A DNA stretch of 4,828 nucleotides from IMG/VR virus record IMGVR_UViG_2547132270_000008, one strand, 5' to 3'. Positions 388 to 4,678 of this stretch are shown piece by piece. Position 1 is the first letter of the stretch, and each line of letters begins with the position of its first letter. The position numbers and the translations under genes were made by a program. The notes below the pieces were generated by a model, which made no database searches, was not told the DNA's origin, and saw only the letters and a list, made by a program, of their open reading frames with translations. This stretch comes from a virus. Taxonomy: Duplodnaviria > Heunggongvirae > Uroviricota > Caudoviricetes.

Positions 388-597
388 ATGCGTGAAATAA
401 ATGAAGATCGCGTAATCCGTGAGGATGAATGTCGTAAGTTAACTGGAGTGTGTCGCACTACACGCTATGAACTGGAGAAAAAAGGGAATTTCCCGTCACG
501 CCGTAATCTGGGCGGTCGTTCTGTAGGTTGGCTGCTGTCCGAGGTTATGGAATGGGTTAAAAGCCGGGATCGCATTAATTCAGGCAAGGCAGCGTAA
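388..597 (+). CDS. alpA: AlpA-family (Xis-like) small helix-turn-helix prophage regulatory protein, 69 aa
   Basis: Complete ORF, ATG 388 to TAA 595-597. Small basic protein with a central HTH-like segment and the C-terminal motif G-R-SVGW...E..EW that I recognise from AlpA/Vis/Xis-type regulators of P4-like elements. Weak AGG 7 nt upstream of the ATG. Family call is from motif memory, not a search. Confidence 0.85.
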   Translation: MREINEDRVIREDECRKLTGVCRTTRYELEKKGNFPSRRNLGGRSVGWLLSEVMEWVKSRDRINSGKAA

Positions 598-610
598 AGG
601 GGGGCATATG

Positions 611-647
611 ACACATAAAACAAAGGCGACCCGGATCAGAGGTCGCC
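611..647 (-). terminator. Putative intrinsic terminator for the minus-strand operon (hairpin plus U-tract on the minus strand only)
   Basis: Perfect 7-bp GC-rich inverted repeat GGCGACC (625-631) / GGTCGCC (641-647) with a 9-nt loop. On the minus strand the stem is followed immediately by TTTGTTTTATGTGT (complement of 624-611). On the plus strand no T-run follows the stem. Lies 65 bp downstream of the stop of ORF 712-921. Confidence 0.4.
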
Positions 648-711
648 AGTGGGAATACACTAAACATAAGCCCAGCCATCATAGCGATTTGCTGGCTGGT
701 GGGCAATGTGA

Positions 712-921
712 TCAGCCTGGTGGGCGGTTCCTGTTAGCTTTCATTACCCGGGGCTGTTTATTGAGAAACTCATCAAGCGCAAATTTTGTAGGCGCTGGTT
801 CTGTATTTGGTGGCATTTGTTTAGCGTGTGCCTTTTCTTTCTGGCGTGCAACAATGCTCTGTAAAAGCAATCTTCGTTGTTCTGCGAAAATCTCTTCAGT
901 GGATAGGTATTTTTTGCTCAT
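712..921 (-). CDS. Hypothetical 69-aa protein, second gene of the minus-strand operon
   Basis: ATG at 921-919, TGA at 714-712. Charged, helix-prone sequence (MSKKYLSTEEIFAEQRRLLLQSIVARQKEKAHAKQ...), unlike the Cys/Ser/Arg/Trp-rich antisense plus-frame ORF 608-1561. Same strand as the RHH gene, 57 bp downstream of it, and followed by the 611-647 terminator. No family recognised. Confidence 0.5.
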   Translation of the reverse strand: MSKKYLSTEEIFAEQRRLLLQSIVARQKEKAHAKQMPPNTEPAPTKFALDEFLNKQPRVMKANRNRPPG

Positions 922-978
922 AGTGCCGACCTGTAAAGCAATGCGCCGGAGTACCTCACACCACAGCGCTGATAGTGA

Positions 979-1158
979 TTATTCTTGCTCTTTAGCCTTG
1001 CGTCGCTGGCGGCGTTTGATCTCGCCTTCTAATGCGGCTGTTACAAACTGCCCTGTACTTTCGCCGTCTTCTTTGACCTTATCCATGGCATCAACGATAT
1101 GGAGTGGGACACGTGCATCTATTCTTTTCGATTTTGCATTTACTGATTTCGTTGCCAT
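979..1158 (-). CDS. Ribbon-helix-helix (CopG/Arc/MetJ-like) DNA-binding protein, 59 aa; candidate repressor
   Basis: ATG at 1158-1156, TAA at 981-979. The track ORF starts at an upstream GTG (1236) that would lie inside the palindromic operator region, so I prefer the ATG. Sequence MATKSVNAKSKRIDARVPLHIVDAMDKVKEDGESTGQFVTAALEGEIKRRQRRKAKEQE has a short basic N-terminal strand (KRIDARVPL), two helices and a basic tail, the RHH pattern. Weak GGA about 9 nt upstream. Confidence 0.6.
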   Translation of the reverse strand: MATKSVNAKSKRIDARVPLHIVDAMDKVKEDGESTGQFVTAALEGEIKRRQRRKAKEQE

Positions 1159-1179
1159 TTCTGATTTCCGATTGGTTTG

Positions 1180-1261
1180 GTGTCCGACAATGATAGCGAG
1201 AAAAAAGTTTAATGCAATGCTTGACGTGTCCCACACCGATAAAATAACATGTGTCCGACAC
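1180..1261. promoter_or_regulatory. Divergent promoter/operator region: three copies of the 11-bp palindrome GTGTC-C-GACAC overlapping candidate promoters for both strands
   Basis: Palindrome copies at 1180-1190 (GTGTCCGACAa, 10/11), 1226-1236 (GTGTCcCACAC, 10/11) and 1251-1261 (GTGTCCGACAC, perfect). Candidate plus-strand promoter TTGACG (1221-1226), 18-bp spacer, TAACAT (1245-1250). Candidate minus-strand promoter TTGCAT (complement of 1217-1212), 16-bp spacer, TATCAT (complement of 1195-1190). Promoter hexamers are weak matches called by eye. Confidence 0.45.
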
Positions 1262-1357
1262 TTGATTTTTATCAGTCATAAAATGACGAAACCCCGCACT
1301 GTTGGAGCAGTAACGGGGCTTCTAACCACCAACGATAGCGAAAGTATCGAGGTAGCT

Positions 1358-1561
1358 ATGCTAAATCATACCACACACCCGCAAGGGCGGGACTCGCACA
1401 ACCTGAATAAATACATCTGGCGTTTTATCGCCCTGAGCACCGCACAACCGCGCGTGATTCACATCGTGGCCACCAGCGAACAGGAAGCACGCCAGCAATC
1501 CCCGGCTGGCTGCGTGATGGTATTCGCCGCCCGTATTCGTCAGGGGGTGTGCCATGCCTGA
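1358..1561 (+). CDS. Hypothetical 67-aa protein, first ORF of the plus-strand operon
   Basis: ATG 1358 preceded by GAGGT (1349-1353). Stop TGA 1559-1561 overlaps the ATG at 1554 of the next ORF (ATGCCTGA). Codons are dominated by E. coli-preferred CTG/CCG/CGC/GTG/ATC/ACC. This is the 3' end of track ORF 608-1561, whose upstream part I treat as antisense artefact. Alternative in-frame ATG at 1283 has no SD. The opposite-strand ORF 1361-1555 is a competing reading. Confidence 0.4.
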   Translation: MLNHTTHPQGRDSHNLNKYIWRFIALSTAQPRVIHIVATSEQEARQQSPAGCVMVFAARIRQGVCHA

Positions 1562-1874
1562 TATGTCAAATTACCAGTACCTGATTAATCCGCATTTTAA
1601 CTGTGAGCATGATATTGCTAAAAAGGTTTATTCCGCTGCGGATGGGGCTACTGACAATATATCAATGGCTGTTGCGTCAATTGGTAGCCTGATGTGGCAT
1701 GCGTCAGAAAATGAGGAATATGACGAAAAGGCCATGCGCATTGATATGGGTAATATCGGTTTGTTACTGGCAATGCTTGGACATTTTGATATTTCGTTAC
1801 GGTGCACCATTGAAAATGCCACAGATGCATTAAATGCTATAAAGAAAGCGAATACTGATTCAAATCGGGGATAA
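1554..1874 (+). CDS. Hypothetical 106-aa acidic protein
   Basis: ATG 1554 with GGGGG (1543-1547) 6 nt upstream; TAA 1872-1874. Noticeably AT-rich (about 37% GC in the first 60 nt, counted by hand) compared with the flanking GC-rich genes. Overlaps the stop of the upstream ORF, suggesting translational coupling. No family recognised. Confidence 0.55.
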   Translation: MPDMSNYQYLINPHFNCEHDIAKKVYSAADGATDNISMAVASIGSLMWHASENEEYDEKAMRIDMGNIGLLLAMLGHFDISLRCTIENATDALNAIKKANTDSNRG

Positions 1875-1880
1875 ATAATC

Positions 1881-2180
1881 ATGAGAACATATTTATCTGG
1901 CTTGACTGCCAGCGGTTATGCACACCCCAAAATTATCCCCGGCGCTATTTATTGGGATAAGAACGGCAACAGAGTAACAGTAAAATCGATAATGTTTGAC
2001 CGTGTGTATTTTATTCGTGATGGCTATTCATTTCATAGCTCGCTGAACGTGGAGATCTTTATTTGCAGATTCCGGCGGGAAATCCCGCCTTCCAGAAATA
2101 ACCATGTGTCATGTATGGATGTTGATAAAAAACTACAGGAACTGAAAAACATGATTGCCGCGTGGAGAGAGCAGAAATGA
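1881..2180 (+). CDS. Hypothetical 99-aa protein
   Basis: ATG 1881 (GGGG at 1867-1870). Stop TGA 2178-2180 overlaps the ATG 2177-2179 of the large replication gene (ATGA coupling). Contains a beta-rich-looking stretch YWDKNGNRVTVKSIMFDRVYFIRDGYSF. No family recognised. Confidence 0.55.
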   Translation: MRTYLSGLTASGYAHPKIIPGAIYWDKNGNRVTVKSIMFDRVYFIRDGYSFHSSLNVEIFICRFRREIPPSRNNHVSCMDVDKKLQELKNMIAAWREQK

Positions 2181-4300
2181 AAAAAGCGCCAAATTTAAAA
2201 CACCAGCCACGTGACAAAATGACGGAAGTCATCATTTTTGCGGGTAGTGATGCGTGGGCACATGCGAAGCAGTGGCAGGAACAGGACGGGCGACTGGCTG
2301 GCGATAACGTGCCTCCTGTCTGGCTTGGAGAGCAACAACTTGCCGAACTGGACAACCTGCAAATCGTACCGGACGGACGCTATCGCGTGCGTCTCTATCA
2401 GGCGGGGTTATTGCGTCCGGGGCTTGTTAATACCATCGGGCAGAAACTGGCAGCGGCAGGTGTCAGGGATGCTGATTATTACCCTGAAGGAATGCACAGC
2501 CAGAAACGGGAGAACTGGCGCGAATATCTGGAACGTGAACGGGCAGAGCAGGCGGAAAAGAAAAAGGTAGTTGAACTGCCTGTAAAGAAAAAAGAGCCAT
2601 GCTATCAGGATGATGAATTAAAGCCCCGCGTTGAAAGTCGCGTCGATGGTGTTTTCTGGGTAACGCCCAAAGTGGATAAGCAGTCAGGCGAAATTATCCG
2701 GCCTGAGACGTGGTTATGTTCTCCGCTTGAACTACTGGGAACGGGGACGATCGGTAAAGAGCATTACCGCGTGATGCGCTGGAAAAAATTAGCAAACCAT
2801 GAAGTCATCACAATGGCGATCCCGTGTGGTGGCATTGGCGACCGTGACGGCTGGCGGTTGCTTAAAGATCACGGGCTGAACGTGACAACAAACGGCAAAT
2901 ACAGGGCTATCCTGGCTGACTGGATGCAGTTAAGCGGAAGCCATGAGGAATGGCAGCTAAGCACAACAACGGGCTGGCATTTTGGCGCGTATATCATGCC
3001 GGACGGCTCAATCATTGGTGATTCTGAAAAACCGATCCTGTTTACCGGAAAAAGTGCCGCTGTTAATGGCTATTCGGTTGCGGGTACGGCGGAGGGCTGG
3101 CGCGACTGCGTGGCGCGGCTGGCTGGTGGCAATCCGTCCATGATGCTGGGTGTTGCCACGTCACTGGCAGCACCTTTGATTGGCCTTGTTGGTGCTGACG
3201 GCTTCGGGGTACATCTTTTCGAACAGTCATCGGCAGGGAAAACCACCACGCAGAACATCGCATCAAGTTTATGGGGAGAGCCGGACGCACAACGGCTGAC
3301 CTGGTACGGCACAGCGTTAGGTATCGCTAACGAGGCAGAGGCGCACAACGACGGGCTGTTACCCCTGGATGAAATAGGCCAGGCCGGAAACGCGCGGGAG
3401 GTGTCCACGTCAGCCTATACGTTGTTTAACGGTTCCGGGAAATTACAGGGGGCGAAGGACGGCGGCAACCGGGAGATAAAACACTGGCGCACGGTGGCAA
3501 TCAGCACCGGAGAAATGGACGTTGAGACATTCCTCAAAACGGAGGGGATAAAAGTCAAAGCGGGGCAGCTTGTCCGCCTGCTTAACGTTCCGATGGAAAA
3601 AGCCACGCACTTTCACGAATACAGCACCGGAAAGGCGCACGCAGACGCGTTAAAGGATGCCTGGACAGAAAATCACGGGGCAGCGGGTCGTGAGTGGGTT
3701 AAATGGCTGGCAGGCCACCAGCAGGAGGCAAAGGATACGGTAAGGGAATGCCGCGAACGGTGGCGCAACCTGATACCGGAGAGCTACGGCGAGCAGGTCC
3801 ACCGCGTGGGTGAGCGTTTCGCCATACTGGAGGCCGCGCTTGTGCTTTCCGGTCATGTAACTGGCTGGGCCGCGCAGGAATGCCGGGACGCAATACAGCA
3901 TAACTTTAATGCCTGGGTGAAGGAGTTCGGCACGGGTAACAGGGAATTTAAACAGATGGTTGAACAGGCTGAGGCGTTTTTGTCGTCGTTCGGGTTCAGT
4001 CGATACCTTCCTTACCCAAACAGTGATGAACGTGATTTACCGATTAAAGACCTTGCCGGATACAGAAAGGGGAGTATCAGAAATGAAGATGATGAGTTCC
4101 GTTTTTACACGTTTCCTCATGTGTTTGAGGGGGAGATCGCACAGGGATTTAACCCGTCCCACTTTGCCCGCGCGTTGAGTGCTGCCGGAATGCTGGAAGC
4201 GGGTAACGATCGCCGTTACAAGAAAAAGGCTCTCGGCAAAATTGGGGGGAAGCAGCATGTTTTTTACGTGCTGATGTTCCAGCCTGAGGCAGAAGATTAA
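2177..4300 (+). CDS. Replication initiator of the primase/helicase type found in P4-like satellites and PICIs (P-loop NTPase core; often annotated as DUF927 / P4-family primase), ~707 aa
   Basis: Long uninterrupted ORF. I place the start at ATG 2177 (GGAGAG at 2164-2169, 7 nt upstream; ATGA overlap with the preceding ORF) rather than the track GTG at 2162. Stop TAA 4298-4300. Walker A-like SSAGKTT (nt 3227-3247) and Walker B-like LLPLDE (nt 3356-3373) are in frame. Size, position downstream of alpA and adjacency to an iteron origin fit the family. The N-terminal stretch VIIFAGSDAWA resembles a Toprim strand but lacks the usual acidic residue, so primase activity is unproven. Confidence 0.8.
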   Translation: MKKAPNLKHQPRDKMTEVIIFAGSDAWAHAKQWQEQDGRLAGDNVPPVWLGEQQLAELDNLQIVPDGRYRVRLYQAGLLRPGLVNTIGQKLAAAGVRDADYYPEGMHSQKRENWREYLERERAEQAEKKKVVELPVKKKEPCYQDDELKPRVESRVDGVFWVTPKVDKQSGEIIRPETWLCSPLELLGTGTIGKEHYRVMRWKKLANHEVITMAIPCGGIGDRDGWRLLKDHGLNVTTNGKYRAILADWMQLSGSHEEWQLSTTTGWHFGAYIMPDGSIIGDSEKPILFTGKSAAVNGYSVAGTAEGWRDCVARLAGGNPSMMLGVATSLAAPLIGLVGADGFGVHLFEQSSAGKTTTQNIASSLWGEPDAQRLTWYGTALGIANEAEAHNDGLLPLDEIGQAGNAREVSTSAYTLFNGSGKLQGAKDGGNREIKHWRTVAISTGEMDVETFLKTEGIKVKAGQLVRLLNVPMEKATHFHEYSTGKAHADALKDAWTENHGAAGREWVKWLAGHQQEAKDTVRECRERWRNLIPESYGEQVHRVGERFAILEAALVLSGHVTGWAAQECRDAIQHNFNAWVKEFGTGNREFKQMVEQAEAFLSSFGFSRYLPYPNSDERDLPIKDLAGYRKGSIRNEDDEFRFYTFPHVFEGEIAQGFNPSHFARALSAAGMLEAGNDRRYKKKALGKIGGKQHVFYVLMFQPEAED

Positions 4301-4322
4301 CCCCCTGTGTGAGGTGAAAAGT

Positions 4323-4639
4323 TGCGGGTTATGCGGGTTACTCTGTGTATAAGTGCATTAACTGCATGAATAAAAAGGAAATCAATAACCCGCACGTAAC
4401 CCGCAAAACGGCAGTTATAACCCGCAAAAGTGCGATTATAACCCGCAGATGAATAACAGGAAGTGACAGCAAACAGCCACGCGTAACCCGCAGAAAAAAC
4501 CCCGTTTGCGGGTTATTTTGAGCATTTTGCGGGTTACGCCACGGCTAAACAGTAAACAGTTAATTTTGTAATGTATTGATATTAAGGAATAAAAAATACT
4601 TAGCAAGCGAAGATAACCCGCTAACCCGCATAACCCGCA
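4323..4639. repeat. Putative origin of replication: 12 copies of the 9-bp iteron TAACCCGCA (both orientations) flanking an AT-rich spacer
   Basis: Reverse-orientation TGCGGGTTA at 4323-4331, 4332-4340, 4507-4515, 4528-4536. Forward TAACCCGCA at 4386-4394, 4397-4405, 4418-4426, 4439-4447, 4484-4492, 4614-4622 (TAACCCGCt), 4622-4630, 4631-4639. Spacings of 9, 11, 21 and 21 bp recur. AT-rich spacer 4541-4612 contains tandem TAAACAG x2. The array begins 23 bp after the replication gene stop. Confidence 0.65.
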
Positions 4640-4678
4640 CTGTTTTGTATATATATACGAAAAATTGAGATCTGAACT

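Follow-up and report, generated by a model that had tools for sequence, protein, structure and literature searches.

The virus record IMGVR_UViG_2547132270_000008 (Caudoviricetes; IMG/VR) holds the stretch of 4,828 nucleotides analysed here, hereafter termed the window, in which three small co-oriented open reading frames (ORF1 to ORF3) lie between an alpA-type regulatory gene and a replicase gene (Table 1). The ORFs, of 67, 106 and 99 amino acids, and the Shine–Dalgarno (SD)-like element in front of each can be read directly from the sequence, as had been recognised in a first-pass annotation made from the letters alone. These elements are GAGG at 1349–1352 (5 nt upstream of the ORF1 start), AGGGGG at 1542–1547 (6 nt upstream of ORF2) and GGGGA at 1867–1871 (9 nt upstream of ORF3), and the replicase is preceded by GGAGAGAG at 2164–2171. 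The same annotation took the ORFs to be chained throughout by overlapping stop and start codons, which holds at two of the three junctions: ORF1 and ORF2 overlap by 8 nt (ATGCCTGA, 1554–1561) and ORF3 and the replicase by 4 nt (ATGA, 2177–2180), whereas ORF2 and ORF3 are separated by a 6-nt gap (ATAATC). The tight chaining of co-oriented ORFs into the replicase gene, inside the alpA-to-replicase interval of a satellite, is borne out by near-identical E. coli loci and by the 77 distinct copies of the cassette.

Table 1. Features of the window and, in the last row, of a protein family found in other loci (positions are those of the window or of the locus named).
Feature	Position	Strand	Remarks
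alpA, AlpA-family regulator	388–597	+	Pfam PF05930, E 2.9e-16
Strong SD AGGGGGG (598–604) and ATG (608), 10 nt after the alpA stop	598–610	+	Start of long frame
250-codon stop-free stretch in the ORF1 frame, antisense across two minus-strand genes	608–1357	+	317-aa ORF, 608–1561
Terminator-like hairpin and T-run, minus strand only	624–647	-	Consensus scan only
Hypothetical gene, 69 aa	712–921	-	Annotation only; no family, no codon-position bias
YlcI/YnfO-family gene, divergent from ORF1	979–1164	-	NCBIfam NF041551, E 4.6e-16
Three GTGTCC(G/C)ACA repeats	1180–1189, 1226–1235, 1251–1260		Between the divergent YlcI/YnfO gene and ORF1
Leader hairpin, outer stem 1289–1295/1315–1321, inner stem 1298–1302/1307–1311	1289–1321	+	Compensatory changes between alleles
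Near-invariant UCUAACCACCAACGAUA, 17 nt, the first 15 invariant or nearly so, then SD hairpin	1321–1352	+	Single occurrence in window
ORF1, 67 aa, Icd-like protein (short form)	1358–1561	+	ATG 1358, TGA 1559–1561
ORF2, 106 aa, rare family phrog_15327	1554–1874	+	ATG 1554, TAA 1872–1874
ORF3, 99 aa, DUF4222/RgdR family	1881–2180	+	ATG 1881, TGA 2178–2180
Replicase, DUF927 primase/helicase type	2177–4300	+	ATG 2177
Probable origin: ~14 TAACCCGCA iterons in both orientations (4322–4639), then AT-rich palindrome	4322–4667		Sequence
71–80 aa WL-motif family	L003 6056–6289; L004 5490–5708; L005 5443–5676; L007 7401–7643; L008 9340–9558; L091 5253–5477; L092 5114–5329		

ORF1 to ORF3 are genes and not a leader. 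Conservation was assessed in 77 distinct cassette sequences from IMG/VR and Escherichia coli loci. ORF2 has 106 aa, an ATG start and no internal stop in 74 close copies of the 77 (the count leaves out two distant relatives and one contig-truncated copy, which are not comparable), and ORF3 has 99 aa wherever the copy is not truncated by the end of a contig. The junction geometry (−8/+6/−4) is identical in 66 of the 77, and 109 of 111 full-length DNA alignments are free of gaps; in contrast, one-nucleotide indels are present in the leader just upstream of ORF1. Set against six E. coli copies, the ratio of non-synonymous to synonymous polymorphism (pN/pS) was 0.13–1.04, mostly below 0.55, on small counts. 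The length of an ORF is by itself not beyond chance, many ORFs of 60–119 aa being found in wrong frames of the replicase gene; it is because they are conserved, and not because of their length, that the three exceed it. The reading of the region as a non-coding leader crossed by chance frames could draw on the ORFs of similar length that arise in wrong frames of the window, but it is already refuted by the conservation data and has next to no probability: no frameshift or internal stop occurs in the distinct copies, ORF1 and ORF3 match curated families, and relatives of ORF2 with 27–67% identity keep a length of ~100 aa. Decay of the ORFs in close relatives had been named in advance as the sign of such a leader; they are intact across the 77 copies.

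Using megablast, the window was found in chromosomes among complete E. coli genomes. Two of these loci (L001 and L002), with at least 98% identity to the window over the aligned parts, both lie between cspD/yljB and clpS, and carry in order an integrase gene, an alpA-type regulator, a YlcI/YnfO gene (minus strand), an Icd-like gene, a hypothetical gene, a DUF4222 gene, a DUF927 replicase gene and ssb. Two versions of the region 3′ of ssb are found in them: a short packaging module (major capsid, head decoration and small terminase) and a full capsid-forming set (capsid, protease, portal, connector, HNH, TerS and TerL). The integrase, alpA, replicase, origin and packaging module, in one orientation over ~10–16 kb at a fixed chromosomal site, reproduce the layout of the Gram-negative phage-inducible chromosomal islands (PICIs) and their capsid-forming relatives (cf-PICIs), and judging from this gene order the window is part of a PICI-type phage satellite of E. 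coli. It is like elements of the EcCICFT073 type in its int, alpA, replication module, origin and packaging genes and in the site between cspD/yljB and clpS, and near-identical cassettes sit beside the short as well as the full packaging module. In contrast to what follows here, published maps label the genes between alpA and the replicase ‘hypothetical’ (PMC6092414). The present element is known here from its sequence, helper-phage induction and transfer having been demonstrated for EcCICFT073 only; in that element, the satellite cycle is activated by AlpA, which turns on the downstream genes, helper phages switch alpA on, and uncontrolled induction damages the host (PMC6092414).

About one in three complete E. 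coli genomes carries a PICI-type satellite, enterohaemorrhagic (EHEC) and uropathogenic strains among them. Of 5426 complete E. coli genomes, 1591 have the block of leader and ORF1, and 460 have the three-ORF cassette in full. Other elements have an Icd-like gene at the head and a DUF4222 gene at the tail of the interval, with one to four different small ORFs between, chained throughout by overlaps or by gaps of <10 nt; the middle slots are filled by a few recurrent families of small proteins, among them that of ORF2. The survey of the alpA-to-replicase interval that the first-pass annotation had proposed as a way of telling variable cargo from conserved core thus gives a divided answer, in that the Icd-like gene at the head and the DUF4222 gene at the tail are fixed, whilst the ORFs between them, ORF2 included, are exchangeable. 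The cassette is accordingly a common and already annotated arrangement, not a new one, and its members are of known kinds.

It had been stated that none of the three ORFs matches a nameable family, which does not hold for the first and the last. ORF1 matches the NCBIfam model NF033153 (‘host cell division inhibitor Icd-like’, phage_ICD_like) over residues 19–62 with 71.2 bits and E 5.5e-20, the cutoff of the model being 25 bits. The Icd protein of phage P1 matches the same model over its own residues 12–51, these residues being the smallest part of the protein that retains FtsZ binding and division-blocking activity (PMC11897509). In a pairwise BLASTP comparison, residues 18–60 of ORF1 align with residues 11–50 of P1 Icd at 37% identity over 43 aa (E 6e-7). 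On these alignments, ORF1 is a member of the Icd family that appears to keep the FtsZ-binding stretch of P1 Icd, and its product most likely blocks Z-ring formation and host division. P1 Icd was not reached by ORF1 in a tblastn search of 50,697 phage records, even at E≤10; in this search ORF1 matched only the cf-PICI vB_KppS-Ant and ORF3 had no match, and the two families look satellite-associated. Comparison of ORF1 with PDB sequences gave nothing meaningful. The PHROG families to which ORF1 belongs, phrog_6196 and phrog_1743, carry the label ‘transcriptional repressor’, but that ORF1 is a repressor is very improbable, as the curated NCBIfam model and the P1 alignment group it with a protein shown to bind FtsZ and a repressor-type label was met only once among the weak tblastn neighbours, on a ‘putative secondary immunity repressor’ at E=9. 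The PHROG label was, we infer, inherited from the annotation of the c4/immI region, and it was rejected as lacking support. A run of five G at 1543–1547 immediately precedes the overlap of ORF1 and ORF2; when one G is lost, the two ORFs are joined in frame, and such fusions are present in the database proteins P0001 and P0057 (171 and 324 aa); they could be due to sequencing error or to natural slippage.

The arrangement can be compared with the immI operon of P1 (c4 – icd – ant1/ant2), where a small Icd-family ORF likewise heads the operon, its stop codon overlaps the start of the next gene, and the Icd-family domain spans the FtsZ-binding core. The P1 record annotates an ATGA overlap of icd and ant1, and describes Icd as apparently required for ant expression. 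The systems differ in the overlap itself (ATGA at icd/ant1 in P1, the 8-nt ATGCCTGA here, which is kept with divergent ORF1 alleles), in what lies downstream (an antirepressor in P1, small ORFs and a replicase in the satellite), and in two features that belong to the satellite version, a structured leader and a frame that stays open as far back as alpA. In P1, icd is under the control of the C4 antisense RNA, which is absent upstream of ORF1: an Rfam scan of the window at E≤1 gave 0 hits, and hence no C4/CI-type RNA, whilst the same scan of P1, run as a positive control, found C4 (68.8 bits) and c4-a1b1. Biere, Citron and Schuster are said to have found in 1992 that blocking icd translation in P1 leads to premature transcription termination before ant.

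At the other end of the cassette, ORF3 matches Pfam PF13973 (DUF4222) over residues 16–67 with 62.4 bits, against a gathering threshold of 27 bits. The one studied member of DUF4222 is the 99-aa RgdR (ECs1581) of the O157:H7 cryptic prophage CP-933C/O-island 51, which activates LEE1 and type III secretion, represses motility, has pleiotropic effects on transcription and binds DNA only non-specifically; an RGD tripeptide at residues 20–22 is important for its activity (PMC3378721). The RGD-bearing DUF4222 gene of an O157:H7 genome occupies the same position, overlapping a DUF927 replicase. ORF3 resembles RgdR of CP-933C and C1493 of CFT073 in belonging to DUF4222, in its 99 aa, and in lying directly before, and overlapping, the replicase of an alpA-type element; it differs from them in sequence (30–34% identity, with PGA in place of RGD), and the LEE1 and motility phenotypes are known for RgdR only. 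The DUF4222 assignment links the replication module of a satellite to a protein already known to regulate type III secretion in EHEC, and a cassette whose head gene is of the Icd (FtsZ-inhibitor) family and whose tail gene is of the RgdR family opens direct and cheap tests of host takeover. An AlphaFold model of ORF3 (24 sequences, core predicted local distance difference test (pLDDT) ~89) has a small four-strand barrel with a short helix and, behind these, a long C-terminal helix, a predicted Tudor/SH3-like barrel plus C-terminal helix. Searches with ORF3 gave nothing meaningful among PDB sequences, and only uncharacterised small barrels and DUF1653 in BFVD. The sole match of a profile search of genome contigs with the DUF4222 alignment, to a cyanobacterial metagenome-assembled genome, was judged to be due to chance.

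ATGA forms the end of each of the 82 distinct DUF4222 genes, and a replicase gene follows in 80 of them. The replicases that follow are of three catalytic cores (DUF927, ‘DNA primase family’ and RepA helicase), and an N-terminal domain of ~120 residues is common to all three core types (window 2177–2540; L003, L004, L006, L008 and L092), with an identity to the window of 67–93% within E. coli and of 39–54% in distant elements. From this linkage, and from the N-domain common to different cores, it follows that the conserved unit is DUF4222 plus the replicase N-domain. A recombination breakpoint lies inside the replicase gene. The same two facts, the ATGA-coupled position directly before the replicase and the N-terminal part common to three cores, could be taken to mean that ORF3 is a replication accessory factor binding the replicase N-domain (as a loader, as a chaperone or in origin recruitment), with its effects on host transcription being secondary. 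We consider this unlikely: elements such as vB_KppS-Ant and L092 have this N-domain of the replicase but no DUF4222 gene ahead of it, L091 and L092 carry a 60-aa DUF4222 gene coupled to a different gene, and RgdR on its own alters LEE1 and motility expression in trans (PMC3378721).

ORF2 matches only phrog_15327, a family with no assigned function, and is rare: searches of 5.8 billion and of 1.84 billion proteins found 19 relatives and 15 representatives, respectively. Three distant relatives of ~100 aa align with it at 27–40% identity, and distant relatives occupy the same pre-replicase slot in other satellites. ORF2 itself is found beside ORF1 alleles of 43–63% identity, a DUF4222 allele of 36% identity and various replicases, the junction geometry being unchanged. 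Its predicted structure is a two-helix hairpin (pLDDT 76), for which a Foldseek search of the PDB gave only generic helical hairpins, none better than E 0.38, and its comparison with PDB sequences gave nothing meaningful. Several small proteins, helical by prediction, can take one another's place between the Icd-like and DUF4222 genes, and ORF2 is one of them. Large TPR_12, Ig-like and other repeat proteins were rejected as relatives, their matches being repeat-inflated or compositional; that of the TPR_12 protein is confined to a single YDEK..NIGLLL..LG stretch. Elsewhere, the last slot before DUF4222 or the replicase is filled by a recurrent family of 71–80 aa proteins (motif ..WL(E/D/Q/N)..L..; Table 1); the window has no such protein, and ORF2 occupies that position. 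Three IMG/VR loci (L063, L081 and L089) have a 449-nt insertion between ORF1 and ORF2, which coincides with a second, divergent Icd-like copy (37–45% identity to ORF1).

Taken together, we propose with moderate confidence that ORF1 to ORF3 are the proximal genes of a translationally coupled early/replication operon, by which host division is arrested and replicase expression is licensed. The operon would run from alpA through the Icd-like gene, the small ORF or ORFs, DUF4222 and the replicase to the origin and ssb. Ribosomes ending one ORF would restart on the next, across the 8-nt overlap, the 6-nt gap and the ATGA, and replicase synthesis would therefore be tied to translation of the upstream ORFs, by analogy with the P1 icd–ant arrangement. 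ORF1 would hold the host undivided during replication and packaging of the satellite, and ORF3 would most likely act through protein contacts, either with RNA polymerase or with the replicase N-domain. That the ORFs are genes, and their family membership, geometry and synteny, are observed; division arrest through FtsZ, the dependence of the replicase on coupling and the partners of ORF2 and ORF3 are what the proposal would add to them. A number of points weigh against it. The identity of ORF1 to P1 Icd is only 37%, over 43 residues, and Icd activity has been reported to be species-specific (PMC11897509). ORF3 has PGA at residues 20–22, where the RgdR of O157 (L007) has RGD, and shares only 30–34% identity with the RgdR clade; for ORF2, PADLOC, PDB sequences and Foldseek gave no significant match of structure or family; and a C4-type RNA is missing from the window. 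The coupling is read from geometry and each ORF has its own SD-like element, so that independent initiation is possible.

The cassette could also be read chiefly as a unit of abortive infection or superinfection exclusion, in which a protein of an incoming phage switches the unit on, the Icd-like protein stops the cell and the population is protected. A precedent is the ECOR61 prophage, where the phage accessory gene orf24 triggered cell death, transposon suppressors fell in three genes including an Icd-like one, removal of the Icd-like gene abolished the effect, and all six linked genes, including a primase gene, were needed to reproduce cell death (Silas et al., bioRxiv 10.1101/2023.04.06.535777). 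That unit was compared by description only; the window likewise has an open frame that extends ORF1 upstream. The switching on of alpA by helper phages in EcCICFT073 (PMC6092414) would fit the same reading. It is nevertheless improbable in our view, as the chain ends in a replicase with an adjoining iteron origin and ordinary satellite induction, itself toxic, predicts the same phenotype. Nor is there a match to a known defence family: in PADLOC-DB 2.0, ORF2, ORF3 and the replicase are without a match and ORF1 matches only at E 0.039, and the two sub-threshold matches obtained (E ~0.04) lend no support to the first-pass suggestion of defence or anti-defence cargo.

The control region of the cassette is the interval between ORF1 and the divergent YlcI/YnfO gene, whose substitutions cluster at its own third codon positions (133/175/488). 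The YlcI/YnfO product is a candidate repressor of the rightward operon, and from its sequence we infer a ribbon-helix-helix protein. The three GTGTCC(G/C)ACA repeats in the interval bracket a sigma-70-like promoter (TTGACG at 1221–1226 and TAACAT at 1245–1250), a match which, taken alone, is at chance level (6 sites in comparison with 6.4 expected). Other alleles have a repeat sequence of their own at similar spacing, such as GTGTT(T/C)AACAC three times in L059, and the repeats are candidate allele-specific operators for the YlcI-family protein. Among the allele types of the repeat is GTGTTTAACAC.

Downstream of the repeats lies a structured leader. In the hairpin at 1289–1321, both sides change in 7 of the 9 pairs of its two helices, in 24 cells, which is matched by 0 of 500 shuffles, and slid controls gave 1–4. 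The near-invariant UCUAACCACCAACGAUA that follows leads into a second hairpin, in which CGAUA (1333–1337) pairs with UAUCG (1345–1349) and CC (1329–1330) with GG (1351–1352); its stem is invariant and its loop variable, and it pairs three of the four bases of the ORF1 SD-like element. The leader (1289–1352) matches no Rfam family in the scan of the window at E≤1.

The ORF1 frame is also open upstream of its own ATG, back to ATG 608 (317 codons), and longer versions of ORF1 are sometimes annotated in related records, including a 324-aa version that GenBank annotates in vB_KppS-Ant. At 84 distinct places of ORF1 homologues the frame is open upstream of the ORF1 ATG over a median of 260 codons, with at least 100 codons in 68 of them. 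Stops were counted over 525 nt in 29 distinct upstream alleles sharing <30% of 12-mers: there were 64 in the ORF1 frame as compared with 284 and 325 in the other frames, and 16 of the 29 alleles had none in the ORF1 frame and 6–16 in each other frame. In at least seven other loci with a located alpA homologue, an ATG stands 8–10 nt after the alpA-like stop behind a G-rich SD, which together with the window makes at least eight. Substitutions by codon position nevertheless show no third-position excess in the parts of the frame free of minus-strand overlap (209/129/131 at 608–711 and 150/122/116 at 922–978), and on these counts a long upstream frame encoding a conserved product was rejected. 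It follows from the few stops in the ORF1 frame and the missing third-position excess that, in most alleles, stop codons are avoided in the 608–1357 frame whilst the amino-acid sequence is not conserved. Two options are left for this stretch, a translated bridge or a fast-evolving extension of ORF1.

As an extension, the stretch would imply that ORF1 has been mis-bounded, the first product being of ~317 aa (608–1561), starting just after alpA and carrying the Icd-like domain at its C-terminus; the cassette would then consist of one long gene and two small ones, with the coupled relay starting at alpA, and a short form, initiated at the internal SD and ATG 1358, can be produced alongside the long one. 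The open frames, the stop-free alleles, the recurrent start behind alpA and the vB_KppS-Ant annotation would all suit such a product, which we hold to be possible though doubtful. Against it stand the lack of third-position excess outside the minus-strand genes and the fact that, in the overlap, it is the minus-strand YlcI gene that is under purifying selection, the substitutions falling on its third positions. The N-terminal 250 aa (608–1357) of the window have no family match, and of six alleles tested only L003 gave weak matches, to anti-repressors. The stretch also holds the structured leader and the near-invariant SD and ATG at 1358; there are one-nucleotide indels in the hairpin loop, the long frame of allele L054 is out of frame with Icd, and the O157 element (L007) has a separate 247-aa ORF.

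The other option, likewise tentative, is that 608–1357 is a translated bridge which joins the Icd-like ORF in frame and gives an unbroken translated relay from alpA to the replicase. As stops are purged while the amino acids drift, selection would on this reading act on the act of translation and not on its product. Over its 750 nt, translation of the bridge would shield the transcript driven by AlpA against polarity of the Rho type; it would also open the leader that sequesters the SD and override the convergent repressor transcript. A longer relay of ribosomes, of which the coupled cassette would be only the distal half, would then serve the satellite as its commitment switch. If true, the bridge would clearly exemplify selection for translation as such and would show how the activator AlpA overrides a convergently transcribed repressor, and it is this stop-free stretch, together with the covarying leader, that we consider most worth pursuing. 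A literature search found nothing linking AlpA, PICI and antitermination. The long frame also contains a perfect Chi sequence, GCTGGTGG, at 695–702 (+) and a Chi-like CCTGGTGG at 717–724; an ‘AAGGQ’ motif common to the long-frame translations of divergent alleles may reflect this Chi DNA signal.

Among the remaining features, the 69-aa gene at 712–921 (−) has substitutions of 43/35/32 by codon position and is missing from some close relatives, such as L001, and it may not be a genuine gene. The terminator-like hairpin at 624–647 (−), just before alpA, is the probable end of the leftward transcript of the YlcI and hypothetical genes. The iteron region behind the replicase holds a perfect 18-nt inverted pair (4323–4340 with 4622–4639), and on its sequence 4322–4667 is the probable origin of replication.

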